DNA of 64,000 bases from Candidatus Phycocordibacter aenigmaticus (GTDB taxonomy: Bacteria; Patescibacteriota; Minisyncoccia; Phycocordibacterales; Phycocordibacteraceae): contig CP174359.1 in NCBI GenBank assembly GCA_045401115.1, positions 50,117-114,116 on the forward strand, given 5' to 3'. A program made the position numbers and the translations under genes. The stretch's first letter is position 1. Every line of letters starts with the position of its first letter. The notes beneath the pieces were generated by a model. That model saw only the letters and a list, made by a program, of their open reading frames with translations. It was not told where the DNA came from and did no database searches. Below are positions 887-63,809 of this stretch, piece after piece.

Positions 887-1042
887 ACACCTTAGCTTAC
901 CGCTTTTGCCCTTCTTGCGCCAATGGTTAGAGAAAAACCTTTGTTTCTTTCCTGGAGCGAGGACGGTCCTCGCTCCAGGAAGGTGTAGTGAGGGACTATG
1001 GCGGTTTCTTGCTTTTTATTTTTCATGCGGCATAATCAAAAT

Positions 1043-1399: not shown

Positions 1400-1702
1400 A
1401 TGGACCATGAAGCACATAGAGAGTTCAACTACGGCTTGAAAGGGGCTATTGCCGGCTTGGCGTTTGGTGGTGGCGCATCTTTCAGCGCAGCCACTGTTGA
1501 AAATAGGTTTAATTTTTTTGAGTCTGTTGAATTTGATAGTGCTGAAATGTTGGTAATCACATCCGTGGGTGCCTTGCTGATGGCCGGTATAGGAGGTTTA
1601 GGGGGTATTAAATACGCCACCACAAGAGAAGCGAAGATGCGAGAACTTGAACAACACATAAAAGATATGGAGATGCAGGGAGATATGGAAAAGGGGTTTT
1701 AA
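1400..1702 (+). CDS. Hypothetical small Gly-rich membrane protein
   Basis: 100-aa ORF with Gly-rich hydrophobic segments, bracketed by the two copies of the ctacagcgNcgctgtag terminator hairpin. Confidence 0.35.
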   Translation: MDHEAHREFNYGLKGAIAGLAFGGGASFSAATVENRFNFFESVEFDSAEMLVITSVGALLMAGIGGLGGIKYATTREAKMRELEQHIKDMEMQGDMEKGF

Positions 1703-3368: not shown

Positions 3369-3440
3369 AGTGGATAGGCTCGGAATGAGCGGCGGCGGGA
3401 TGCCGAGTTAGTGTGGTCAACACCCGGGTGTTGACCATAC

Positions 3441-6184: not shown

Positions 6185-7515
6185 AGAGCGCGCACAAGAG
6201 TGGTGAACTGATCTCCTCTATCAAACTCGTTAGTGAACATACCGAAGGATGCGAAGGCGGGGCTGAAAAGAATAGTGTCGCCCGGTTCGGCTGCGGCGTA
6301 TGCTTCATTCACTGCACTTTCAAGGGTGTTGTGGAGTGTCGCGTCGGTGTCTTGCGGGAGAATGCGCTCCGTGCCGGAGCCCGCCAGATACACCACGCGC
6401 TTGGTATAGCGCGGGAGCGCTTCGGTGAGCGCGCTCATGGAAAGGCCTTTGTCTGAGCCGCCTATGATCAAAATGACGGACGTCGGACGTCCGTCATGTG
6501 GGACGGTAAGGGTGTGGAGGGCGGCGAGGGTCGCTTCGGGGGTGGTGGCGGTCGTGTCGTTGTAGAATGCTATGCCGTTTATTTCACGAATACATTCGAG
6601 GCGGCCTGGCACACCGGCGAAGTCGGCAAGCGCTTGAACGCTGAGTGCATCGTCAACCCCTGCCGCGCGCGCGGCGTTGAGTGCGCAGGCAGCGTTTGCG
6701 CGGTTATGTTCACCAGGCACTTTGAGTTGGAGGTTTTCCGGTAGTGTGTCCGTAGGTGCCACTGCGCGTTTTGCGATAATAGCGTTGTCGTAATGCTCGG
6801 TGAGGAGTGGTGCTACTTGTTCACTCATTACCAACGTGTCGTCCGGCGTTTGATGGAGGAAAATCTGCGCTTTATCGGCAAGATACGCGTCCATGTTGCT
6901 TTGGTAGTAGTCCATGTGGTCGGGGAAAAAACTGGTGAAGACTGCGATATGCGGACTCACCTGCGCGGCACCAAAACCCCAGCACTGCCATGAGTCGAGT
7001 TCCATAAGCGCGATGCTTTTTTCCGTTACCTGAGGGAGCAACGCGAGTGTGGAGACGCCGCGCACGTTGCCGCCAAGGAGTACCTCTTTTCCTGCTGCCT
7101 GCAAGATGTCATACAACATATGTGTGACGGTGCTTTTCCCACGTGTTCCAGTAACACCAATAACCGGGATGTTTGCCAACTCGGCAAACCAACTGGCGCT
7201 CATTTTTATCGGAGTCCCCTCTTTTTGTGCTTCTTGTATATACGGTGAGTCCACCGGCACGTTCGGTCCTTTTAAAATGAAGTCCCGGTTTTGGAAATCC
7301 TCTAGACGGTGTTCACCGAGGGTGTAGGTTATGTGTGGAAATTGTTTTAGTTTTTCAAGTGACGGCGCGAGGGCGTCGGCGTCTTTCAGGTCGGTGACAA
7401 TAAGGTCAGCGCCGTGTTCAGCAAGGAATGCGACATCCCCCACTCCACGTCCGAGAAGGCCCAAACCCACCACGGTTATCTTTTTTCCTTTAATTATGTC
7501 CTGCCAGTTTTGCAT
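6181..7515 (-). CDS. murD: UDP-N-acetylmuramoylalanine--D-glutamate ligase MurD
   Basis: KITVVGLGLLGRG (Rossmann), GVTGTRGKSTVT (P-loop) and C-terminal Mur ligase domain. SD-like AAAGAGGTG lies upstream. Confidence 0.9.
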   Translation of the reverse strand: MQNWQDIIKGKKITVVGLGLLGRGVGDVAFLAEHGADLIVTDLKDADALAPSLEKLKQFPHITYTLGEHRLEDFQNRDFILKGPNVPVDSPYIQEAQKEGTPIKMSASWFAELANIPVIGVTGTRGKSTVTHMLYDILQAAGKEVLLGGNVRGVSTLALLPQVTEKSIALMELDSWQCWGFGAAQVSPHIAVFTSFFPDHMDYYQSNMDAYLADKAQIFLHQTPDDTLVMSEQVAPLLTEHYDNAIIAKRAVAPTDTLPENLQLKVPGEHNRANAACALNAARAAGVDDALSVQALADFAGVPGRLECIREINGIAFYNDTTATTPEATLAALHTLTVPHDGRPTSVILIIGGSDKGLSMSALTEALPRYTKRVVYLAGSGTERILPQDTDATLHNTLESAVNEAYAAAEPGDTILFSPAFASFGMFTNEFDRGDQFTTLVRAL

Positions 7516-8112: not shown

Positions 8113-8137
8113 AAACGGCTCACCCTGGTGAGCCGTT
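8113..8137. terminator. Conserved-stem hairpin aaacggctca-N6-tgagccgtt (repeat family, copy 1 of 6)
   Basis: Identical 10-bp stem AAACGGCTCA/TGAGCCGTTT also at 37694, 40726, 53698, 53729 (variant) and 58171, each with a different 6-nt loop. Confidence 0.55.
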
Positions 8138-8195
8138 CTTTTATAGTGTTTAATGTGCGGTGCGGTACCGTACCGCACATGTACGTGTTTTTCTA

Positions 8196-9366: not shown

Positions 9367-10517
9367 TTAGGCTGCAGCTTCTTCGATGTACTCGGCACCC
9401 TCCTCGTTTTCATGAAGTGCGTCCTCTTCTTCGCTCTCAACCTGTTCTTTATGTCTCAGACTCACCAACACTGAGTTACCGAGCAATAGACGAGGTTCTT
9501 TGGCACGAGTAAATGTATCCATAATATGTGTCACGCGCTCTTCAGTGTATGCAGTTCCCTCAACCATATTAAAGAATGTATCAAGGACTATTGCTTCTTC
9601 TTCAGAAACCGCAACAACGGCCAGGATCGCTTCTTTAAGGATACGGAATGCGCGTTGCATATCCCCTTCCTGTAGCGCTTCAACTAAGAGCGCTTCGATA
9701 CCATGCTCAAAAATATACGCATCAATTGCTTCGTCATACAGGCCGAGTATTTCCTTTGCACGGCGATGTGCAATACTTTTTTCGGAGTACTCTTCTTTGC
9801 CATCCAGGTCGGGACGATCAGGGATTACCTCTTCATCTATCCACGAAAGATAGGATAGACCGGATGCGATGCCAACTGGCTGACTTGCTTCTGGATCAAG
9901 TTCAAGTCCCGCTTCTTCCCATAATACTTCCCAATCATCAATAATAAGTTTACTGACGTGGGACGAGGTACGTTTCTCTTCCACGTAGGCAAAATCAAAG
10001 AGGTCGATTTTGTACATACTCGGAATCACAAAAAATGCTGTGCCGTCTTTGCTCAATACGCGCGCCACTTCTGTGAACGCTTTTTGTGGATCGGGAACGT
10101 GCTCAATAACATCGGCACAGACAACTGCTTCCACTGATTCATCCTCAAAAGGCAGGTTTTCGATATCAGCAACGTACCCTTCCACCTCTTCATAGATTCC
10201 CTCAGGTGGTACCCCTAAATCGTGTGCGGTTTTTGGGTCAAAGTAATCCGGAATCAAATCAACGCCGATATAATTAATGTCATGCTTTTCAAGCTGCGTA
10301 CGGAGTGAGCCTTCTGCACGAATAATACCGGAAACATTACCCCCAATATCAACCACATGCGTAGCACCATCTTCAGCACACTTCTCGGCAATCAGTCTAT
10401 TTTTATAACGCGTGTACGTTGCGCCAAGTGTACGCTCGATATACTTACGCGCGTATTCAGCATCGTAGTGCTCCAAAGGAACAGCATTATGTGAAATAGG
10501 TGGTTTTTCTTGAGACA
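9367..10517 (-). CDS. Class I SAM-dependent methyltransferase with long acidic C-terminal extension
   Basis: VVDIGGNVSG (motif I), VVCADVIEHVPDP (motif II/III) and FFVIP (post-II). Start chosen at MSQEKPP (ATG 10515-10517) to avoid overlap with the upstream NUDIX gene. Confidence 0.65.
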
Positions 10518-11389: not shown

Positions 11390-11669
11390 ACTGATTTTTG
11401 TTTTTATTGTTCTATCTGAATATCTGAACACCAGAAAAATCACTCGTTACAGTTGCTGTACTAGTGGTTTTATTATACCTGTTTTAGAAAAATTGTCAAG
11501 TAAGTAAAGATACTTACCTCTCTTCTGCTTTAGATTCTATCTGCCGTGTCGATAATCGGCAAAACCGGATATGTTTCAGAGCAGACATATCAGTGCTCGT
11601 TCTGCGCTCGATCGAGACGCACAACACCGACCATGTTAACCACTACTCAATGAGTAGCGATGGTTCCAC

Positions 11670-13127
<1,458 letters not shown>

Positions 13128-23742: not shown

Positions 23743-23851
23743 GTACTGGCGACTAGCTACTTTCCCCCGAAGAGTATCATCGCCACTACCGCGCTTAACT
23801 GCCGAGTTCGGAATGGGATCGGGTGTTTCCACGGCGTCAAGTCACCAGAAC
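23743..23851 (-). rRNA. 5S rRNA
   Basis: The reverse complement reads TCTGGTGACTTGACGCCGTGGAAACACCCGATCCCATTCCGAACTCGGCAGTTAAGCGCGGTAGTGGCGATGATACTCTTCGGGGGAAAGTAGCTAGTCGCCAGTA. Its 5'/3' ends pair (helix I) and the CCGAAC loop is conserved. Confidence 0.85.
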
Positions 23852-23925: not shown

Positions 23926-27226
<3,301 letters not shown>

Positions 27227-32200: not shown

Positions 32201-32337
32201 TCCTCTATCCTATCATTTTCAAAACCACCCATGTGCGGACGTCCGACGTCCGCACATGGGTAGGTCACACACCGCCCTCATACAAAACAGCGGCGGCCCC
32301 TTCGGGACCGCCGCACCATCGCACCACCTACCACTCA

Positions 32338-37419: not shown

Positions 37420-37737
37420 ATATTCTCACTATATATGCTTTTTCTATGGCTTTAACCAAACACGCCGTCTCCCATCTACCACTTTCCACCTACTATTTAC
37501 TACCTTCCACTTTCTACCTACCACCTACCAATTTCCACATACTTGCGCACGCATTCCCCACATACTTCTCCCCAGTTTTATCCCCACCACGCCTCCAACA
37601 CGCGCCGACATACTCCCACGGATACACAAAAAGTTTTCCACTACAACTTTTCAAAAACCTAAAAATCTCTTCCGGGCACGGCACCCAAAAAATAAACGGC
37701 TCACCAGAGTGAGCCGTTTATTATCTTGCTGTAAGAA

Positions 37738-40696: not shown

Positions 40697-40787
40697 GTCA
40701 CCACTATACCAAACCCCTCAAAAACAAACGGCTCACCCTATTGAGCCGTTTCTCTATTTTCTACCCCTCAGACGTAAACTCTTTTTG

Positions 40788-40870
40788 TAGCGAGGACCGA
40801 CCTCGCTACAACTGACACACGTCACTCCACATCAAAAAATAGCAAGAAATAGCGAGGTCGGTCCTCGCTA
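40788..40870. repeat. REP/BIME-like element: two inverted GTAG-initiated palindromes (tGTAGcgaggaccgacctcgctaca ... atagcgaggtcggtcctcgcta) with a spacer of about 40 bp
   Basis: About 85% identical to the element at 46798-46878. A single copy lies at 52723-52743; related hairpins with the same GGACCGACC core lie at 52673-52693 and 58137-58157, and a degenerate copy at 953-975. Confidence 0.7.
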
Positions 40871-40897
40871 TTTTGCTAAACACTACCCTTTCGAGTT

Positions 40898-41464
40898 TCA
40901 CAGACGTGCACCCGCCATAATCCACTCAACCAACAGGCGTATATAAGGACTTGCTATTAACATTGCGCCAATACCGAGCACTACCCCACTCAACCAATAC
41001 CAGAGGACATGGAGTTTTTTCTTTCCGGAACGTTGCCGCCTCTCACTCAATATCGAAACACCAATAACCCCCAAAGAAACTCCGACATAAAGTGAGCTTA
41101 AAATTAACGCGAACTCAGAATTTGACGGTCCAAGATCCCAACCGCCGCTAGACGACTCATCTGGCCACCATATAAGTATTATTGCTATAGGGATATACCA
41201 TACTGCAAACTTCCGCCACGCGTGCACTGCTTGCGGGATAAAGAAAAGGAGAAAAAAGACAATAGCGAGGGCGATGGAGGGATAGAAAAGTTGATCGCCA
41301 AGTAATGGAAATGGACAAGAAGTATCCATGACACGTGTTTCATAATTTATATAACAAATTCCAAACTGATAACTATGGTTAAAAAAGTAACCTGCTATTG
41401 CTCCTGCAACCGAAAGCAAGAAAAACCAAAACATCCAATTTTTAAATAACTTTTTCATACTCAA
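40898..41464 (-). CDS. Hypothetical polytopic membrane protein co-transcribed with the giant protein ORF 41461..45906
   Basis: 188 aa with about five TM helices. Its start overlaps the upstream giant ORF stop (ATGA), implying translational coupling. Confidence 0.5.
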   Translation of the reverse strand: MSMKKLFKNWMFWFFLLSVAGAIAGYFFNHSYQFGICYINYETRVMDTSCPFPLLGDQLFYPSIALAIVFFLLFFIPQAVHAWRKFAVWYIPIAIILIWWPDESSSGGWDLGPSNSEFALILSSLYVGVSLGVIGVSILSERRQRSGKKKLHVLWYWLSGVVLGIGAMLIASPYIRLLVEWIMAGARL

Positions 41465-44400
41465 AATAACGAATTAATAAATCTTACAGTTTGCTTAATA
41501 AAGCCAATAATTTTATCGTACCACCCTGTTTGCACTACTGCCGCCACTTGTGCACTTTGTGTGTCAGGTGTAGCAGTGCCTAATTCACGCTCAGACTCTA
41601 CGCTCGTTTCTGGAGTCTGCGTAGTGCGTGCAACAGGTTCAGTTTCTACATGCACGATAGGCGCCGGAGCTGGTTCTGGTTCGCTCACCTCAGGCGTTGT
41701 AGTTGCACTGGTGGTGGCAGTTACTACTCCACTCACCACACTGACTGCTGAAGACATTGCAGTTGCACCCACTGAAACTGCTGGCGAGTCCAAACCGCCC
41801 GACACCACACCATCTACTCCATCAGGAGACACTGTCTGGTCAACATTTCCGTCCCCGTCGAGGTCAAGAGCAATATCACTTGAAGCGCCGCCGGTAATGG
41901 TAAACGATGCTTGGGTTGAAGTAGACACTGTAAAGTTTGAATAACTCGATACTATCTTTTGGTTATCACCTGAAAGGGTTTCTACAAACACTGTCACATC
42001 CCCACTGCCAGTGCCACCCATAGCAAATGTATACTCTCCATCATCAGGAAGGATAAGATATTTAGCGTCACCAACTGTGAAATATGAACTGCCAGGGATA
42101 TCGTTCGTGACAGTGAGAATATCAGCATCCGGGTCCTGGCCAGGGGTGATGCCGGTATAGTTTCCGTGCTGATCGGTAACACCAAGTGTGACTGGAGAGT
42201 GAACGTTAACGATTAATCTATCGTCCTCATCATTGGGCTCCCATTTTGTTGCAGAGATATATTCACTCTCTGTTACTGTTTTATTTTTTAAAACATCATA
42301 TATAAGACCCTGGGTCGGATTAACACTAACAACATCTTTATGGTCTGTGTCTTTGTGGCTCTCGCTATATAATTTTAAATTAAAATAATATTTCTCCTCT
42401 CCACTACTCACTGCACTTGGATATACTACCGCCCCATCGCCCTCCGTAGTAAAGAGTGCTCTATAAATATTGTTAGCGCGCTCTCCATCACTATCCCCCT
42501 CTTTGTTGAAGTGGTAAGTAATACCTTTAATGGTTGGAAGACCCCAGCCTGCAACCTGCACTACCCGTATGGAACTTGGGAAATTAAAACTGTCATACTC
42601 CCGATGCCAGTCTCGTGCTTTAGTGACCAAACCTGTTTCGAGCACTTCCGGAACCTTATATTTTTTGTCATTTGGAGCACGTGGTATAAATGCTGCTGTT
42701 AGAAAATTACTCATATCAAGGAAACTGGTAGTGGTGTCGCCATACGTCGACCACCACTTTCCAAGCATTCTTGAAGCTTCGCGTTCGGTTTCAGGCTGTA
42801 CAAAAACGATGACAGGGTCAAGCACTTTTTCGAAATATTTCTCTGACGGTAAAAGATGGTGAGACACATCTATCGTTTTCCCCAGTCGTCGTGCGTCTCG
42901 TTTTGAGATTAAAGTAATAAACCCTCCTGCTACCGTAATTTCAGAGCCCTCACCATGCAATAACCCTGTCATCGCCCGCGGTGTCCCGAGTTGTGGCGAA
43001 GCAACCATAACAAAATTATCAACCAAGCCTTCTTTTCCTTCATCAATTAAACGTTTAATAAGCGCCTTGCCTACCAAGCCGCCGTACGAATGCATCACCA
43101 TCGTTACCTTCCCAGTGCGCGATTCCTCGGCAAGCGCTTCTATACGCTCCACAAAGTCAATCACTCCTTCGGTGGTTGTGGCACCATGCTCGGCAATATA
43201 GTCCGGCGCGTAGCGCCAGTCGTACGCTAATGGCTCCCATGCAGTAATAGCTGAAGCGGTTTGCTCGCTACTCGTCGCAGTGAGCGTATTCATAAAGTCA
43301 GTGAAGGGTTGATAAATAGGCTTAAGAGAGAAATTATTTAAAACACCATCAACCACCACATTATCTGTCACCGGCTCACCGGTTTCATCAAACACCAGCT
43401 TTGCAAAATATCCATCAGCTTGATGTAATGCAGTTGGCCATAATGTATTTCCCCCGCTCTTCAACCTACTCCCCTGCAACCCCGGCAAAAACACTACCGA
43501 AGAACAACACACCTCTCCTTCATTCTCCTCACCTTCCCCTTCTTCACCACCATCATCACTAATCGGCGGTGGCGCAAACGGGTCATACGAAAGCCAGTTA
43601 CTAAATTCCACCAACCCAACCGCAGCCACGCCGCCTCCGTCAGGATTAGACGAATGTTGAGGTCCACTCACACTACCCCACCAGTTACGCACCGCATCAA
43701 ATGTTTTTGAAGAATGGTTATGAATGGCGGTTGCCAACGAACTATAGAAAGCACTCCTGGTAATACTGAAACTGTCGCCACCAAACACCCGCACCGCTGG
43801 CCCACTTCCCTTAAACTGCGCACGCGACACGGTCGTCGTGCCCCGCTCCTGCACAATAACGCCCGAGTTTTTAAAGTCTGAAAACTCCGCATACTCAACC
43901 GTCGCCTCCCCACCCCGATTCGTTAAAAATGCGTGCGAGTTACAAAAACCAAATGCACATGAGAAATTCTTTCCAAAGTACCGCGCAGTGATATTCCCTA
44001 AGGAAACCGTCCCGCCTTCCGAAACCCGAATACCATACACCATATCCCCGGCCTGCGGCGTGGTACTGGCGCCATCATTATCTGTGTCCCCCAACACCGT
44101 ATCGTCACGCAACGAGGTAAAGATTACTTTTTCAACACCTTCCGCAGCATCTCCCACCACCAAACGCGCGCCACCACTTACCGAAAAAAGAACATCATTA
44201 TCAGTCTCAGATAACCCCTTCACCACCACCCCTGGGTCAATGGTAAACAACGTGTCGTCCTTTAAAGAGACATTATGTATATGATACGGAACACCATCTT
44301 TAACGAGTCGGTATGAGTCACCGTCCCACAGCGGTCCGGAAATAAACACAGACCCATCCCCGGTATTCCCACCGGTATTGGTAAACATAAGCGAATCTTC

Positions 44401-45906
44401 CGTCTCAGGATCAAAATGAAAACTGGAACTGCTCAACGTATTATTCCCAAACTCAACCTCTCCATTCGTCGCCAAAAGTGCTCGCTTCACTCCGGAAAAT
44501 GTACTGCTCGCAATCACTGCACTCCCGCCCAGCACCGCAAACCCTACATCACCCCCACGCACCGTACTACTTGCCACACTCAACGAACCACCATACAAAC
44601 GCACAAATCCTGAATCGGTTGTAGTTGCCACGCTCACATTCTCTAGTGTCACAACGCCATCAGCAATATACAACGCCGGGCCCGTGCAAGAATCATGCGT
44701 ACATGTTTTTACCGCACCCCCATACCGCACATCCGTGTTATACACACGCACCGTACTGTCATCACTGACGAGTATCTTACTCCAATCACCTTGACTCGGC
44801 GTCGTAGCGCTTCCATTCTCGTTACTGTCGCCACCAACCGAATCATCATACAGCGAGGTAATAGTAACTGGCGTCCCCGTCGCCGTTCCCACTGTAATTG
44901 CTCCACCATTTTTCACCTGCACCGGACGCTCGCCATACAACTTCACCACGGTCCCCGGCCGCACCACTACATGCGCACCGGAAACAATCATATTCTTTAA
45001 AATATATACCTCCCCGTCCCCGCCCACCGTCATATCAACATCAATCACTCCCGACAATGCACCTCTATCCACCAACTCCTCCTCAGACAGATCACCAAAT
45101 ATAAACACATCTGGCGAAACCTTTTCTACCGCCTCCTCCCCTGTAGCATAGTCATAGTAGCGAACCGCTGCTTTATAGTACCCTGGCGCTACCGCGCCAC
45201 CGTTAGAAGAAGCGCCATCCCATGTTTTTGAAAAAGCTGACGTAGTTGCGTTTTGCGAAAAGAATTTAACATCCGTACTCCCGTCACACGTTGTCACTAC
45301 TTCCGGGCATATGTATAAACGAGTAAAGTAAAACTCCTGCGGAGCTTCCACACCAATCGTAATCTCTCCCTCTCCAGATAAATCTTCAAACGAAAACATA
45401 AACTCAGACGGCGTCGTAGTCGCCCCGCCACCAGAACCATCATCCTCCACACCTTCACCGCCCTCACCGTCTCCATCTCCGCCACCATCAGACCCCTGCA
45501 CCGAAATCGTATACGCTCCCACTTCCTCAACAGCATCCTCCTCTACCTCATAACGATAATAGCGAGAAACCACTGTATACACTCCTTCCTCAACCTCTTC
45601 ATCATCTGCATCAGTGCCATCCCACTCCCGAGACGCACTCGTACTGGTTGCGTTAATATCAAAACGCTTCACATAGCTACTCCCGTCACAGACCTCAGCC
45701 TCAAAACTACAAATATACAACCGCGTAAAACGCACCTCGGTGGGTGCAGTAACACTAATAGTCATCGGTTCCCCTCCCTGCACAAAAGAAACATTCTCGG
45801 CCACTCCATCAAAACTAACACCTGTATAGCTGCTGCCCTCGGCAAACACCGCACCCGGCACTATAAAAAACAGCAAAACTACCACGGTGTATCGTAAACA
45901 CCTCAT
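41461..45906 (-). CDS. Giant (1481 aa) secreted/surface protein, paralogue of ORF 32836..37419: signal peptide, FlgD-Ig-like domains, beta-helix, LCAT-like alpha/beta-hydrolase with intact Ser nucleophile, Ig-like domain, Thr/Pro-rich C-terminus
   Basis: Same domain order as the other giant ORF: INATSTSASREWDGTDADDEE...GVYTVVSRYY; a beta-helix with NWWGSVSGP; CCSSVVFLPGLQGS...EPLAYDWRY...VTMVMHSYGGLV (elbow x-H-S-Y-G); and a C-terminal Ig-like domain. Confidence 0.75.
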   Translation of the reverse strand: MRCLRYTVVVLLFFIVPGAVFAEGSSYTGVSFDGVAENVSFVQGGEPMTISVTAPTEVRFTRLYICSFEAEVCDGSSYVKRFDINATSTSASREWDGTDADDEEVEEGVYTVVSRYYRYEVEEDAVEEVGAYTISVQGSDGGGDGDGEGGEGVEDDGSGGGATTTPSEFMFSFEDLSGEGEITIGVEAPQEFYFTRLYICPEVVTTCDGSTDVKFFSQNATTSAFSKTWDGASSNGGAVAPGYYKAAVRYYDYATGEEAVEKVSPDVFIFGDLSEEELVDRGALSGVIDVDMTVGGDGEVYILKNMIVSGAHVVVRPGTVVKLYGERPVQVKNGGAITVGTATGTPVTITSLYDDSVGGDSNENGSATTPSQGDWSKILVSDDSTVRVYNTDVRYGGAVKTCTHDSCTGPALYIADGVVTLENVSVATTTDSGFVRLYGGSLSVASSTVRGGDVGFAVLGGSAVIASSTFSGVKRALLATNGEVEFGNNTLSSSSFHFDPETEDSLMFTNTGGNTGDGSVFISGPLWDGDSYRLVKDGVPYHIHNVSLKDDTLFTIDPGVVVKGLSETDNDVLFSVSGGARLVVGDAAEGVEKVIFTSLRDDTVLGDTDNDGASTTPQAGDMVYGIRVSEGGTVSLGNITARYFGKNFSCAFGFCNSHAFLTNRGGEATVEYAEFSDFKNSGVIVQERGTTTVSRAQFKGSGPAVRVFGGDSFSITRSAFYSSLATAIHNHSSKTFDAVRNWWGSVSGPQHSSNPDGGGVAAVGLVEFSNWLSYDPFAPPPISDDGGEEGEGEENEGEVCCSSVVFLPGLQGSRLKSGGNTLWPTALHQADGYFAKLVFDETGEPVTDNVVVDGVLNNFSLKPIYQPFTDFMNTLTATSSEQTASAITAWEPLAYDWRYAPDYIAEHGATTTEGVIDFVERIEALAEESRTGKVTMVMHSYGGLVGKALIKRLIDEGKEGLVDNFVMVASPQLGTPRAMTGLLHGEGSEITVAGGFITLISKRDARRLGKTIDVSHHLLPSEKYFEKVLDPVIVFVQPETEREASRMLGKWWSTYGDTTTSFLDMSNFLTAAFIPRAPNDKKYKVPEVLETGLVTKARDWHREYDSFNFPSSIRVVQVAGWGLPTIKGITYHFNKEGDSDGERANNIYRALFTTEGDGAVVYPSAVSSGEEKYYFNLKLYSESHKDTDHKDVVSVNPTQGLIYDVLKNKTVTESEYISATKWEPNDEDDRLIVNVHSPVTLGVTDQHGNYTGITPGQDPDADILTVTNDIPGSSYFTVGDAKYLILPDDGEYTFAMGGTGSGDVTVFVETLSGDNQKIVSSYSNFTVSTSTQASFTITGGASSDIALDLDGDGNVDQTVSPDGVDGVVSGGLDSPAVSVGATAMSSAVSVVSGVVTATTSATTTPEVSEPEPAPAPIVHVETEPVARTTQTPETSVESERELGTATPDTQSAQVAAVVQTGWYDKIIGFIKQTVRFINSLF

Positions 45907-45974
45907 ACTTTCACCAAACCACTAAAATAACCGCGCTGCCACCGCAAAACTAATTTCTGTGGAAAACTCCCCAT

Positions 45975-46010
45975 CAAAAAAATATAAAGGACAGTCCTTT
46001 ATATTTTTTT
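45975..46010. terminator. Perfect hairpin aaaaaaatataaaggac-a-gtcctttatattttttt between the RAYT-like gene and the giant ORF start
   Basis: 17-bp arms. A second copy of the core atataaaggacNgtcctttatat lies inside the RAYT-like CDS at 46561-46583. Confidence 0.5.
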
Positions 46011-46012
46011 GA

Positions 46013-46738
46013 TTATCCTTTTTTTGAGCCAAGGTACCTAAGCTCTTGTGTATATTCAAAATGTGAAACTACTCCCACAAGATGTTTAACATCATCAAAA
46101 GAAGGAACATCCTCCTCAAGTTCCTTCAGTGCATCAAAATTAATAATGACCCGCTCCGGTCGCACCCTCCCTGCCCCTATATCAGGGAAACTCGCATGCG
46201 CGTAATTCGTAAGAAAAGAAACAGCATCACTCGGCAATGCTTCAAAACCGTCCTCTTTCCAGTTCGGCGCATGCAGATCAAGCGGATTAAGCGCGACATA
46301 CGCAAAGAGCCACCGCAGATAATCACCACTCTCTACGTGCCTACTCTTAAAAGGTCCTTGAAACACCGTTCCGGAATGCTCATGCTTTTTATTGAAATAC
46401 ATAGAATACCCCGTCGAAACCTTTTTCATAAAGCGTGAAATCCCCTCTTCGGCCTTTTGCCGGAGAATCAAATGGAAATGATTCGGCATCAACGCGTACC
46501 CCAAAACATCTACCAACCCCTGACCCACCTCCTCTTTTTCAAAAATTGATATAAAGGACTGTCCTTTATATTTATTGAGAAGATTTGCCGTGTGCATCTC
46601 CCTTTCGGTATTAGCAAGAAATAAAAGCAATTTAAAACGAAAATAATCTCTCTCATCGAGAAAGACCTCGGCCTTATGCGCGCCGCGATTATAGACGTGA
46701 TACACCTCATCAGCTACCAGTGGTGTTTCCCTCTGCAT
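46013..46738 (-). CDS. IS200/IS605-family HUH tyrosine (Y1) transposase, REP-associated (RAYT)-like
   Basis: N-terminal VYHVYNRG, HUH motif MPNHFHLIL and catalytic-Tyr motif AYVALNPL (Y-x3-NP). Flanked 60 bp upstream by a GTAG-initiated REP pair. Confidence 0.6.
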   Translation of the reverse strand: MQRETPLVADEVYHVYNRGAHKAEVFLDERDYFRFKLLLFLANTEREMHTANLLNKYKGQSFISIFEKEEVGQGLVDVLGYALMPNHFHLILRQKAEEGISRFMKKVSTGYSMYFNKKHEHSGTVFQGPFKSRHVESGDYLRWLFAYVALNPLDLHAPNWKEDGFEALPSDAVSFLTNYAHASFPDIGAGRVRPERVIINFDALKELEEDVPSFDDVKHLVGVVSHFEYTQELRYLGSKKG

Positions 46739-46797
46739 ATACTATGTGTACCAAAATCCACACCTCCATCCACATACTTATCCCCACTTCTTCTTTG

Positions 46798-46878
46798 TAG
46801 CAAGGACCGACCTCGCTACAACTGATTCACATCACATTACTCCACCCTAAAACAAAATAGCGAGGTCGGTCCTCGCTA
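46798..46878. repeat. REP/BIME-like element (second full copy), immediately 5' of the RAYT-like gene
   Basis: tGTAGcaaggaccgacctcgctaca-spacer-atagcgaggtcggtcctcgcta, homologous to 40788-40870. Confidence 0.7.
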
Positions 46879-46930
46879 TTTTAAATGGGAAAATAGATGG
46901 TAGCGCCAAAGAAAGGCTTGCAATTCACAC

Positions 46931-51727: not shown

Positions 51728-52722
51728 AGCGTATAGCTAATTGTGTTTGACACACTCCTCTTAAGTCTGCTGGATTAATAATAATCGAGATCGCTAAATC
51801 TCAACAGCAGCGAAGTGTGGGCACTACAATGCTTTTGCAAATAAAATGTTCCTTCGACAGAACGACAAAAGCACTAGTACCAATTAATAAGAATTCTAAT
51901 TAATTTCCACCATCCCTAAAAAGAGTTACCTCTTTTTAGAGGTTGATGGCGAGAAGAATTTCGGGACATGCAGAATATTTCAGAAACATAACAGGACATT
52001 CAGTAGTATCAGTATAAGAAGAATGTTTTACGCACCAGCACTTCGTTATACATATGACATGAAAAACAAAGTTCTTCAGAGGTATATGAAACAAACAGCA
52101 CCAGTAGTAAAACGTGCACACATGCACGTAACGTGATCACATCGTAATAGTAAACGCGTCTCATGCCGGGGTATGCGCCCGGTTACTCAACGGCAATCCG
52201 GAAATATAACACCGCACACTACCTTTGTATGGCAGTGAGTATTGGTGTCTCTGTCAAAGTTCATCCCCCGTCATTTCAGCAATCTATCGAACGAACACAG
52301 TGTGTTCGTATGCAACCGTTTCAGAAATATCAGTGCATATATTATACCGCTATATGGTGCATTGTGGGGGTCATGCACCGGGTACAAAAATGTGGATAAC
52401 CAACAACAGTAATACAGATAAAAACCCCTCGTTTGAGCGGTTCGTTTTCTGCCTGTTATGTAGTACTACCCACGCCAGCACCATACCGCGAAATGCCCAC
52501 TTTAGCAATACAAAGCGCTAAAACACGCTCTGCGTCAAAAAGGTATATACCTCTATAAAAACCGGTCTTTATACGCTCTTACGCACACTCAATTCCCCTA
52601 TAAAACGCACCCAAAGGCACCCTTATTCAATACATACTCACAGACGCTATATAAAGGAATGCAATTTTCTCATCTCAAGAACCGACCTTGAGAAAGCACC
52701 CCGCTACTCCCCCTATAAAAAA

Positions 52723-52743
52723 TAGCGAGGACCGACCTCGCTA
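52723..52743. repeat. Single REP-like palindrome aTAGcgaggaccgacctcgcta, with a related hairpin at 52673-52693
   Basis: Same core as the BIME-like pairs at 40788 and 46798. Confidence 0.6.
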
Positions 52744-52790
52744 CACTTGTGTTTTTCCCCACCTACCACTTTCCACCGACCACCTCCTAT

Positions 52791-53552
52791 CTATGACGCC
52801 CGCCGGTACGTACTCCATCGACGCTCCCCTTCTTTCAAAAGGACACCTTCAGTAACCATAGAAATAAGCTCTCGTTGCAATGTTTTTTCACTACAATCTT
52901 GAATATGTGCAGCAACGTCTTTTACGGTTATTTTGTCCTTTTTATCTAAAAGACGTAATATCGCCTCACGTCGTGGCGTATGTCTTTTATGTCCTTTTGT
53001 CCTTGAAGGTGTCCGTGTGTTTTTCGGCGTCGCTGGCGCATCTTTCTGTCCAAGAGAAAGCGCACTGCTCCGCGCGGGCGCACTACGCACGGCAGACATC
53101 TGTGCACCACCAACCTCAGCGTTTAATGCACCTGCACCGAACACTTTTTCATAATGCATTTTAACGAAATTAGCCAGCTCTGCATACTCATCTGACAGTA
53201 CGTCGGCATTCATTGATGACACAAAACCTGCACGATGCGCGAGTTTCAAAATCGTACCAATCTCCAAACAACGTGATGCAAATGCATTGCCTCCGGCAGG
53301 CATCCCCGCGCCGTCTTGATCAGCCGTCGTGGCACTTACCAACTCAACTGCGCACATGCGCAAACGTGTCCGTAATGGGTCGTTGCTCGGAATAAATCCA
53401 GTCACCAAGTACAGTGCCGAGGCAAGTTTTTCTGTCTTTTCTACCACAAAGCCGTGGTGCTCATTTTTTAAAAAATCCTTAAAATTCAAGCGAAATCTCT
53501 TATCGCTGTCCTTTATACTGAGTGCGTTTGTGTCTTTTTGTGTATCAGACAT
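52791..53552 (-). CDS. Hypothetical protein with C-terminal winged-helix DNA-binding domain
   Basis: C-terminal ILRLLDKKDKITVKDVAAHIQDCSEKTLQRELISMVTEGVLLKEG resembles a DeoR/MarR-type wHTH. Start taken at MSDTQKD (ATG 53550-53552) because the longer ORF would include the terminator hairpin at 53698-53722. Confidence 0.4.
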   Translation of the reverse strand: MSDTQKDTNALSIKDSDKRFRLNFKDFLKNEHHGFVVEKTEKLASALYLVTGFIPSNDPLRTRLRMCAVELVSATTADQDGAGMPAGGNAFASRCLEIGTILKLAHRAGFVSSMNADVLSDEYAELANFVKMHYEKVFGAGALNAEVGGAQMSAVRSAPARSSALSLGQKDAPATPKNTRTPSRTKGHKRHTPRREAILRLLDKKDKITVKDVAAHIQDCSEKTLQRELISMVTEGVLLKEGERRWSTYRRAS

Positions 53553-53898
53553 GTTGTGTCTTTTATTGTCCTTAATAACTACATCAAAGACAATCTGTCT
53601 ATAGGACAGGTTACTCCTCTGCCTCCTCAAAGTCAATACAACGGACCGCTCTCTTTGACTCATCCTCGTATGATTGAGCCCGACGTCAATCATACATAAA
53701 CGGCTCATCAGGGTGAGCCGTTCTTTGCTAAACAGCTCAATACATTGAGCCGTTTTCTCTGCCTATTAGGCACCGCGCATCACCCTCCCTTTTCTATTTT
53801 TAAACCCAAAACCCCTTCTCGTTTTCCGCTTCTAATATCTGAAGTGTGAAATCATATTTCTGAAATTCCACCCCTGCCCATGTTACTATTTATCCATA

Positions 53899-58083: not shown

Positions 58084-58224
58084 ATATAAATATAATACAT
58101 TTTATTTACCAAAAGTCAACCTTTACCATTACCCTCTCTCAAGGACCGACCTTGAGAAACCCATAAAATTAAACGGCTCAGTCTCCTGAGCCGTTTAATA
58201 ATGACACTCGTTGTACGCACCAAC

Positions 58225-60776: not shown

Positions 60777-60832
60777 GTGTTTATTGAAATGAGATGGTAT
60801 GCGAGACATCAAGGAGCGAGTGTGTGAGCCGT
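60777..60832 (+). repeat. Direct repeat of about 56 bp (copy 1; copy 2 at 61039-61094) containing a ttgaaa box, gagatgg and an ATG start
   Basis: gtgtttattgaaatgagatggtatgc[g/a]agacatcaaggagcgag[t/a]gtgtgagccgt, with 54 of 56 positions identical. Confidence 0.6.
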
Positions 60833-61023: not shown

Positions 61024-61166
61024 TCAATACAACGCTCTGTGTTTATTGAAATGAGATGGTATGCAAGACATCAAGGAGCGAGAGTGTGAGCCGTACTTCT
61101 AGATACGGTGAGCAGTCGCGCGACGCAGATAACGAAGCAGAGCGCTCATTTCAGTGAACACTACTC

Positions 61167-62873: not shown

Positions 62874-63809
62874 TCAGTTCAGCAACGACACTACCCCAAA
62901 CACCCGCTGGGCATTCTCGCGCACCGCGCTCTGTACCTCCTCCTCAGAAATGCCCCGAATACGCGCTAAAGCTCCCACAACATGTTGTACATAGGCTGGT
63001 TCGTTACGCTCTCCCCGGTGCGGCTTCGGCGCCGCGTACGGCGCATCTGTTTCAGTCAAGAGCATATCAAGCGGTGCTTCGCGCACTACCTCGTCGTAGT
63101 CCTCAGTAAAGGTCAGTACGCCCGTAAACGACGTCGTCATACCCAGCGCCCAGAAACGTCGCGCCACCGCCAGATTCCCCACAAAAAAGTGCATATTCCC
63201 CTTCACCACTCCAATGTGCGGACGTCGGACGTCCGCACTATTCGCGCCCGCCATATCCACCTCACCCTCCTGGTCAACACCTGGGTGTTGACCATTCCCT
63301 AAAGATTCAAAATAATCAGCCGCTTCCTCATACGCATCCATAGATCCTTTTGATGGTCGGCAGTGCACCATCAGTGGCATGTCGTACTCTTGCGCCAATG
63401 CTGTCTGTGCTTTAAACACCTCCCACTGCGTCTCTTTCCACCCCTCTCCGCTTTCCTCGCCGGGTGCTGTCGTCGATTGTCTGAAAAAATCAAGTCCACA
63501 CTCACCCACACCGACCACGCGTGGCTCATTTAACAGCGCCGCAAACGCGTCTCTATCAAATACTTCTTTCTGCGTATAGTTTGGATGCAACCCCACACAC
63601 GCCCACAGGTTGTCATGCTTCTGCGCGAGGCGTACCGCCTCGCGCGAACTCTCCAGGTCAACGCCCACCACAATCCCCGCTACACCTCCCTCACGCATCC
63701 GCGCAATTACGGCGTCTTGGTCCTCTTTTAAACCATCCAAATTCGGGTGGCAGTGCACGTCAATATATCTCAGCACATCATTCATAACGCTACTGTAGCA
63801 CAACAGCAC
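62874..63809 (-). CDS. tatD: TatD-family metal-dependent DNase/hydrolase
   Basis: YIDVHCHP, GLHP, GECGLD and FTGVLTF motifs. The likely start is the internal MNDVLRY. Carries the GCGGACGTC-N-GACGTCCGC palindrome in-frame. Confidence 0.8.
   Translation of the reverse strand: MLLCYSSVMNDVLRYIDVHCHPNLDGLKEDQDAVIARMREGGVAGIVVGVDLESSREAVRLAQKHDNLWACVGLHPNYTQKEVFDRDAFAALLNEPRVVGVGECGLDFFRQSTTAPGEESGEGWKETQWEVFKAQTALAQEYDMPLMVHCRPSKGSMDAYEEAADYFESLGNGQHPGVDQEGEVDMAGANSADVRRPHIGVVKGNMHFFVGNLAVARRFWALGMTTSFTGVLTFTEDYDEVVREAPLDMLLTETDAPYAAPKPHRGERNEPAYVQHVVGALARIRGISEEEVQSAVRENAQRVFGVVSLLN

Follow-up and report, generated by a model that had tools for sequence, protein, structure and literature searches.

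We analysed a stretch of 64,000 nt from Candidatus Phycocordibacter aenigmaticus (contig CP174359.1, positions 50,117 to 114,116 of the forward strand), hereafter called the window. It contained a nuclease/transposase-like gene, the Y1 gene (46013..46738, minus strand, 241 aa), whose product was a class-2 Y1 HUH enzyme. Palindromes were found at fixed positions around and inside this gene, and the same layout recurred in many related genomes. It is thus a real but unusual relative of the systems formed by repetitive extragenic palindromes (REPs) with REP-associated tyrosine transposases (RAYTs), and of the TIRYT systems. The enzyme class, the intact catalytic residues, the fixed positions, the compensatory stems and the sameness of the copies within a genome were established. 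By analogy with known Y1 HUH enzymes, we consider it probable that the Y1 gene and its own palindromes form a REPtron/TIRtron-like unit, in which the enzyme would bind, nick and rejoin the hairpins. A preliminary description of the window had proposed a REP/RAYT system. Its Y1 HUH protein, gene-linked palindromes and doublets were retained here, and its family assignment, its emphasis on GTAG and its view of the genomic setting were not.

Palindromes at three fixed positions of the Y1 gene

The locus comparison covered 12 Patescibacteria loci for which DNA was available. Palindromes occupied three positions. An upstream copy was located 20-130 nt 5' of the ATG in 11 of 12 loci; in the window, it was an inverted doublet at 46795..46882, which lay 57-144 nt 5' of the ATG. 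A second copy was located in frame at a G-x-S codon in nine of 12 loci (46549..46571 in the window, inside the Y1 open reading frame (ORF)), and a third at, near or overlapping the stop codon in eight of 12 (45973..46013 in the window). The hairpin scan of the homolog loci found the perfect palindrome within the Y1 coding sequence at the same place from locus to locus. It was centred on the codon that follows an invariant Gly and precedes a Ser/Thr (G59-x-S61 in P0001). The perfect stems at this centre were 11, 10, 6, 14, 10, 7, 3, 8, 5 and 8 bp long in ten loci.

The palindromes were approximately 21-41 nt long. The tip was conserved as AGGAC-N-GTCCT or, with one base changed, as AGGACCGACCT, and the lower stem had a genome-specific 3-nt block and often an ATA...TAT foot. 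The set of tip motifs (GGAC.GTCC, GGTC.GACC, GGACCGACC or GGTCGGTCC) was enriched in all loci but one, with 10 occurrences in the window compared to 1.36 in shuffled sequence, 7 compared to 0.33 in L125 and 6 compared to 0.34 in L129. The motif was approximately 52-fold denser at the Y1 gene than in the remainder of the loci. One locus (L131) showed the same three-position plan with the variant tip AAGGA-GAG-TCCTT, and inverted doublets were also present in L122 and L127. The loci L127, L128 and L132 retained the palindromes despite a different gene context. The palindromes were therefore tied to the Y1 gene throughout the family, also where the context differed. The orientation of the copies relative to the Y1 gene was inconsistent between loci.

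In the window, the in-frame copy was ATATAAAGGAC-T-GTCCTTTATAT, which codes for K-Y-K-G-Q-S-F-I. The 3'-end copy had a stem of 19-20 bp, shared its core with the internal copy and touched the stop codon. It was flanked by A and T runs and was terminator-like in both directions (-16.3 kcal/mol, z -8.8). These were the only two window copies of the type ATATAAAGGAC-N-GTCCTTTATAT, and the preliminary description had missed this type. The upstream doublet read GTAGCAAGG-ACCGA-CCTCGCTAC, a 39-nt spacer and AAAATAGCGAGG-TCGGT-CCTCGCTATTTT. Together with the dispersed copies of the window, it belonged to a GCGAGG type, whose tip differs by one base (ACCGA). Every hairpin of the window was more stable than shuffled sequence (z -4.4 to -12.6).

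Covariation and concerted evolution of the copies

The lower stems were alike within a genome and different between genomes. The hairpin CGGAGGAC-A-GTCCTCCG occurred five times in L129, ATATCAAGGACGGTCCTCGAT four times in L130, and CAGAGGAC-C-GTCCTCTG four times in L124. When 45 hairpins were aligned without gaps, 83.6% of the cells were paired compared to 65.9% after shuffling, and none of 500 shuffles reached the observed value; the hairpins had been selected for the presence of a stem, so that the paired percentage is inflated. The covariation score was 0.472 compared to 0.162, and slid controls gave 0.16 or less. Three stem positions each showed three pair types, and the tip AGG...CCT was invariant. 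These sequence comparisons indicated selection on the structure of the hairpin rather than on its sequence.

The in-frame copy left a trace in the protein. The residues at -2 and +2 of the G-x-S centre were reverse-complement codon pairs (K/F, Q/L, R/S) in 82% of 118 homologs, compared to a mean of 50% and a maximum of 61% in 1,000 shuffles. The five-residue internal footprint was present in 94 of 119 homologs (approximately 80%) and in one of 355 control windows. Footprints were scored by motif, since MAFFT did not align the diverse representatives reliably in the loop. We discarded another statistic, the longest run of reverse-complement-compatible residues, which was too noisy and did not separate target from control regions.

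The 3' copy was also translated. Near the C-terminus it was read in another frame as [KE]-D-x-P in 38 of 118 homologs, compared to none of 631 background windows. When it lay in the same frame, it repeated the internal peptide, as in YQGPSLL and YQGRSLI. The residue before the tail Asp predicted the residue before the internal Gly (25/3 vs 2/10, Fisher p = 1.8e-5), as expected if both are encoded by shared DNA. These patterns indicated that two copies within one gene evolve in concert in dozens of genomes.

Alternatively, the palindromes might be purely regulatory or structural and never be cut or moved. They would then be terminators, RNA-stability hairpins or operators for a dimeric binder of double-stranded DNA. 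This binder would be either the tail of the Y1 protein or another factor, and the palindromes would control the Y1 gene and a few neighbours. The copies at 45973-46013 and 40847 scored as terminator-like with A and T runs, all dispersed copies lay downstream of genes, the tip was a perfect dyad, and the upstream copy was in the promoter/5' region in 11 of 12 loci, which is consistent with such a role. However, terminators leave unexplained the in-frame copy within the ORF and its sharing of the genome-specific stem of the flanking copies. Operators keep sequence rather than complementarity, whereas the stems changed compensatorily here. In addition, the doublets duplicated as units and a chimeric hairpin on contig L118 pointed to copying or recombination, and the tail was without a detected helix-turn-helix (HTH) domain. 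On this evidence, a purely regulatory role seemed rather unlikely.

The Y1 protein and its family-specific insertion

The Y1 protein carried YHVYNRG at residue 13, NHFH at residue 86 and YVALNP at residue 147. The HuH motif was N86-H87-F88-H89, and the catalytic tyrosine was Y147 in YVALNP (Y-x3-NP). The ORF matched the Pfam model Y1_Tnp with 28.4 bits (cut-off 23). It was consistent with the IS200/RAYT-type HUH product that had been described from these motifs. H87, H89, Y147 and N151 were invariant in 23 homologs, also after two outgroups from outside the Candidate Phyla Radiation (CPR) were added. The AlphaFold model gave a predicted local distance difference test (pLDDT) of 87.6 and a predicted template modelling score (pTM) of 0.87. 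In the fold search, the best PDB match was 4er8_A, the E. coli RAYT with a REP hairpin, followed by the TnpA proteins of IS608 and ISDra2. A PDB sequence search with the family profile gave nothing at E <= 0.01, and these relatives were found by the fold search only.

The assignment to the RAYTs, as first proposed, was not supported. The NCBIfam model of the REP-associated tyrosine transposase (NF047646) gave the Y1 protein 33.6 bits, which was below the cut-off of 80, and the homologs P0019 and P0056 scored 45 and 31.5. Judged by a comparison with Table 1 of PMC6006769 rather than with the hidden Markov models of its authors, the protein motifs fit TnpA-Y1 subclass 2.1, RAYT Group 1 or TIRYT, and not the REP-associated subclasses. 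No Pfam or NCBIfam match to an HTH domain was obtained in the tail, and the IS200 model of NCBIfam was not matched by the protein.

An identical Y1 protein was recorded on a 721-kb contig of Patescibacteria group bacterium UBA2163, which agreed with the CPR-type genome that had been suggested. The search for homologs yielded over 1,100 proteins of 225-240 aa; where a name was given, the source mostly belonged to Paceibacterota, Kaiserbacteria or Parcubacteria. When 1.84 billion cluster representatives were searched with a profile, 969 clusters passed E <= 1e-30 and 12,607 passed E <= 1e-10. The family consensus, from an alignment of the 23 homologs with lengths of 225-240 aa (approximately 230 aa), was NHFH, FQG, Y[VI]HLNP and YxYSSF.

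The in-frame palindrome was located in an insertion of approximately 30 residues (roughly 42-75), upstream of HuH and between helix A and strand 2. In the AlphaFold model, the palindrome corresponded to the loop between the predicted helices 50-56 and 63-68. The segment was absent from the Skermanella and Sporomusa homologs, and the Pfam and NCBIfam model matches started only at residues 73-76, after it. Because non-CPR homologs and models lack it, we regarded the segment as a family-specific insertion that tolerates a peptide dictated by the palindrome. A recent insertion of the palindrome into this gene was considered and ruled out, since the KYxGxS segment was kept across the close family. 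It is an insertion only relative to the non-CPR homologs.

Copies elsewhere in the window and on other contigs

The core TAGCGAGGACCGACCTCGCTA was found at 40788, 40850 (inverted), 46798 (one mismatch), 46858 (inverted) and 52723, where the palindromes had been reported, and a relative with three mismatches was found at 955. None was expected by chance (100 dinucleotide shuffles). The 11-nt tip AGGACCGACCT with at most one mismatch occurred at nine sites, among them 52678 and 58142, compared to 0.52 expected. The two inverted doublets had spacers of 41 nt and 39 nt, in agreement with the previous value of about 40 bp. They were similar to each other, and the identity was 81% in a global alignment (71/88 columns, part of the spacer included) instead of the approximately 85% given before.

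The second doublet (40785..40873) was located between two tandem minus-strand genes, beside a separate terminator-like hairpin at 40726-40751. The region 52673..52743, directly downstream of the gene 52791..53708(-), contained the variant hairpin TCTCAAG-AACCGAC-CTTGAGA and a single copy ATAGCGAGG-ACCGA-CCTCGCTAC in the same orientation. Its hairpin TCTCAAGAACCGACCTTGAGA recurred in L124 at 9648-9670. Another variant hairpin, TCTCAAGG-ACCGA-CCTTGAGA at 58137..58157, had the same tip with compensatory changes in the lower stem, and a terminator-like hairpin lay 10 nt away. These two variants were the core-sharing hairpins of the preliminary description. Both were present, and the one at 52673 reads tctcaagAACCGACcttgaga / AAGAACCGACCTT, with an A where a G had been given. 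A perfect 33-nt palindrome, TTCCTGGAGCGAGGAC-G-GTCCTCGCTCCAGGAA, was found outside genes at 949..981, with a stem of 15-16 bp and the symmetric tip form GGACGGTCC. The copy at 953-975 that had been called degenerate was the centre of this palindrome. Rfam matches in the window were rRNA and tRNA only, with no family for the palindromes. A search of genome contigs for the 17-mer GCGAGGACCGACCTCGC gave no Patescibacteria among the best 80 of 117 loci, and these were chance matches in GC-rich genomes.

A scan of metagenomes for the 21-mer found two contigs, L118 and L119. L118 was the syntenic region of a distant relative, with the C-terminus of the large protein, the TPR gene and the small ORF; the TPR proteins of L118 and the window were only 24% identical. 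At the syntenic place it carried a 23-nt repeat identical to that of the window, GTAGCGAGG-TCGGT-CCTCGCTAC. It also held a variant with a different stem, CCCCAGAGG-TCGGT-CCTCTGGGG, and a nested copy. In the chimeric hairpin of L118, the left arm of one type and the right arm of the other were joined at the shared tip. The hairpins formed a BIME-like (bacterial interspersed mosaic element) cluster at 79-101, 260-296, 328-350 and 373-410. L119 contained a single identical copy at 238-264, approximately 200 nt upstream of an ORF, which we take from our own reading of the translation to be the N-terminus of an IS30-like transposase.

A 4.3-kb Logan contig (L120, SRR31281916) with an identical Y1 gene broke off precisely at the outer of the two repeats in the upstream doublet, and its positions 1-29 equalled 46854-46882 of the window. 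We dropped this contig end as proof of a multicopy repeat, since a palindrome can by itself interrupt a de Bruijn assembly.

The palindromes had been described as GTAG- or ATAG-initiated. GTAG and ATAG were base-paired within the stems (with CTAC and CTAT) and were not unpaired tags. No hairpin of the window had an unpaired GT[AG]G at its 5' foot, and the feet in other genomes were ATA...TAT or other sequences. GTAG occurred in the palindromes of the window genome and L118 only. The conserved part was the tip of the hairpin.

These results bear on a canonical proteobacterial REP/RAYT system, in which REPs that start with GTAG are present in tens to hundreds of copies and are moved by a bona fide RAYT. 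GTAG-initiated palindromes and doublets resembling REPINs (REP doublets forming hairpins) adjoin the gene, the E. coli RAYT ranks first in the fold search, and there is a weak match to NF047646. The Logan contig that ends in the outer repeat could also reflect a repeat-induced assembly break, but the palindrome itself could equally well have caused this break. In contrast, the NF047646 score was far under the cut-off, and GTAG was paired and, apart from L118, absent from the palindromes of other genomes. The motifs fit subclass 2.1 and not the REP-associated subclasses 2.2, 2.4 or 2.5, and the copies were concentrated at the Y1 gene. A canonical REP/RAYT system was thus considered improbable.

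Genomic setting of the Y1 gene

The gene block was defined from Pfam matches of the window ORFs and the gene tables of the homolog loci. The order was recA, ftsK, an HTH-like gene, a peptidoglycan-binding protein of approximately 1,150-1,200 aa, a TPR protein, a small ORF and the Y1 gene. It was followed by an LCAT-domain protein and, further on, by rplJ, rplL and a mechanosensitive channel. The recA-ftsK...rplJ-rplL block was common to nine of 12 loci, with Y1 proteins just 46-61% identical to the query. The Y1 gene was in other contexts in L127, L128 and L132. In L133 (10001-10693), it was inverted in place, and the surrounding block was otherwise conserved. The region of the Y1 gene is therefore conserved and not accessory. 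It did not agree with the accessory surface-protein region that had been suggested.

This setting also bears on whether the Y1 gene is an autonomous IS200-like insertion sequence, in which the flanking palindromes would be the ends and the whole gene would move. The palindromes tightly bracket the ORF, and the three different contexts and the one in-place inversion would be compatible with movement. However, the gene was at the same position in nine of 12 loci although the proteins had diverged to 46-61% identity, and it was single in the window. The protein had Y-x3-NP and not Y-x3-Q, and there was neither a tnpB gene nor a match to the IS200 model of NCBIfam. An IS200-like element was accordingly regarded as highly improbable.

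Other features of the window were recorded. A second palindrome family, AAACGGCTCA-N6-TGAGCCGTTT, had a conserved stem and a variable loop and was terminator-like, with six copies compared to 0.01 expected (8113-8138, 37694-37719, 40726-40751, 53698-53723, 53730-53755 and 58171-58196). Two of these copies were 10-35 nt from ACCGA hairpins. GC-rich recurrent palindromes were also found, namely GTGCGGACGT-CSG-ACGTCCGCAC and a relative (6473-6497, 32227-32261 and 63216-63238) and TGGTCAACAC-CYGG-GTGTTGACCA (3414-3437 and 63271-63294); these had no sequence relation to the Y1-linked family. A 37-nt inverted repeat (1294-1330 / 1743-1779, 89% complementary) surrounded a 100-aa ORF (1400..1702) and contained the hairpins AAAACTACAGC-GCAC-GCTGTAGTTTT. 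A 56-nt direct repeat (60777-60832 / 61039-61094) was 96% identical, the copies being 262 nt apart. The rRNA genes were unlinked, with 10.8 kb between the 16S gene (11669-13126) and the 23S gene (23932-27219), and the 5S gene was at 23744-23849. The 23S match covered 3,288 nt compared to 2,925 nt of the model, which suggested insertions of approximately 360 nt. An unusually long gap of approximately 1 kb without an ORF of at least 100 aa (51728-52790) was found upstream of a 1,193-aa gene, and one ORF of 98 aa was at 52225..52521.

Proposed mechanism

In the REPtron/TIRtron-like unit that we consider probable, the Y1 enzyme, a dimer like its solved relatives, would bind the hairpins when the DNA is single-stranded. 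Tyr147 and the metal site of His87/His89 would nick the DNA beside the hairpin through a 5'-phosphotyrosine intermediate, and the strands would then be rejoined. The steps of binding, nicking and rejoining are drawn from the Y1 HUH enzymes IS608 TnpA and E. coli TnpA-REP. Palindrome units might in this way be copied or exchanged between sites, and the copies in a genome would stay alike. Exchange might now and then seed new extragenic copies downstream of nearby genes. The copies that bracket the gene probably double as a terminator or insulator, possibly with a function in autoregulation.

Several points weigh against this proposal. In L133, no palindrome was detected at any of the three positions of the Y1 gene, which means that the hairpins are not indispensable. 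Extragenic hairpins were few; eight were found in the 64-kb window, and only 0-3 away from the gene in each other 20-kb locus. Among 137 more diverse representatives, the internal footprint was present in 10% compared to 1.8% of the controls. This suggested that the in-frame feature belongs to the clade of the query, or that the tip differs elsewhere. The near-perfect dyad symmetry also suits a dimeric protein that binds double-stranded DNA. In the literature, no canonical REPs were detected for subclass 2.1, the one closest to the Y1 protein (PMC6006769). In addition, the 45 hairpins of the covariation analysis were a selected set, and copies within one genome are not independent.

A further step is possible, and we put it forward tentatively. 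The gene might carry its own substrate. An ancestral palindrome would have been inserted in frame, a second copy would have become the C-terminus, and the enzyme would rewrite the copies, as a domesticated protein with a host function. The exchange of hairpin cassettes by cutting and rejoining would still continue. Under such rewriting, the protein loop and the C-terminal peptide would be dictated by the current sequence of the DNA target. If this is true, hairpin and HUH enzyme would form a self-referential pair that streamlined CPR genomes inherit vertically, and not a parasite. Candidate host functions would be the processing of single-stranded DNA at replication forks or self-limited expression.

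Patescibacteria have tiny genomes with few repeats, and the results place a hairpin/HUH pair in them. In these genomes, approximately 970 clusters (50% identity) of the Y1 family are labelled simply 'transposase'. With fixed in-frame and C-terminal palindromes, protein sequences alone record the joint change of enzyme and DNA target. The co-evolution of nuclease and site and the concerted evolution of the copies can thus be tested across hundreds of genomes. The protein of approximately 230 aa and the hairpin of approximately 23 nt are a compact candidate pair for biochemistry. The palindromes also flag sequences that may break assemblies of Patescibacteria genomes.

Comparison with known systems

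Most descriptions of hairpin repeats associated with HUH tyrosine enzymes concern Proteobacteria, Cyanobacteria and Bacteroidetes. In the literature library that was searched, no paper linked RAYT or PF01797 with CPR, in line with the view that a REP/RAYT system had not been described for this group. One preprint merely mentioned a KEGG match to a 'REP-associated tyrosine transposase' in an archaeon. Copies in frame and at the C-terminus, changing together with those that flank the gene, seem not to have been described before in streamlined CPR genomes.

The IS200/IS605 TnpA proteins share the fold, the presumed chemistry and the hairpins flanking the gene. However, their Y-x3-Q motif, their length of approximately 150 aa, their many copies, their frequent tnpB and their absence of synteny were not features of the Y1 gene.

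The E. coli REP/RAYT system (4ER8; subclasses 2.2 and 2.5) is similar in that a Y1 HUH enzyme is encoded beside hairpins. Inverted doublets (REPIN/BIME-like) and copies downstream of genes are also shared. The gene is single-copy and vertically inherited in that system (here, one copy was the only one in the 64-kb window), and hairpin and enzyme apparently co-evolve. In contrast, the CPR protein scored under the RAYT cut-off and an unpaired GTAG guide was not a family trait. Copies away from the CPR gene were few, and the protein had FQ in place of WQ/WE, was longer and had another tail.

The closest relative in the literature is TIRYT/TIRtron (Di Nocera et al. 2013, PMC3733652), which is the same group as TnpA-Y1 subclass 2.1 (Quentin et al. 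2018, PMC6006769) and RAYT Group 1 (Bertels et al. 2017, PMC5581495). Subclass 2.1 has NH[YF]H, FQ, Y[IV]HLNP and an SS motif in the proximal tail, with a median length of approximately 238 aa (PMC6006769). In the TIRYT layout, one terminal inverted repeat (TIR) is tens of nt upstream and the other overlaps the 3' end (PMC3733652). The TIRs often carry the consensus GGGGWSAS, and the C-terminus has an HTH domain (Bac_DnaA_C, HTH_23 or HTH_28) (PMC3733652, PMC6006769). A homolog from a Sporomusa termitida plasmid (L135) fitted this pattern. Its DnaA_C-like tail matched DnaA models, and 34-nt inverted repeats with GGGGTCAG flanked the gene at 1417-1450 and 2369-2402. One repeat was 50-84 nt upstream and the right one overlapped the 3' end of the gene, and they fit GGGGWSAS.

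The CPR system resembled TIRYT in the motifs NH[YF]H, FQ, Y[IV]HLNP and the SS tail motif, in the length of approximately 230-240 aa and in the low copy number of the gene. It also resembled TIRYT in the repeats upstream and at the 3' end, and in modest repeat families that are sometimes self-complementary and sometimes dimers. However, the CPR tail was without a detected DnaA_C or HTH domain, and the CPR repeats were self-complementary perfect hairpins tipped AGGAC-N-GTCCT, not GGGGWSAS TIRs. The CPR protein had the extra insertion of approximately 30 residues with a third, in-frame copy. In addition, the host was a CPR bacterium, and the gene was in a deeply conserved syntenic position.

Subclass 2.4 of Cyanobacteria and Bacteroidetes provides a likeness for the in-frame copy, since a palindrome is located in the transposase gene with the frame kept. 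Its 'double-foot' REPs have both palindrome ends paired, as in the GTAG...CTAC of the window. The CPR site differed in being fixed, upstream of HuH and conserved over a large clade. Moreover, the internal CPR copy evolves in step with the flanking copies, and translation of a second copy contributes to the C-terminus.

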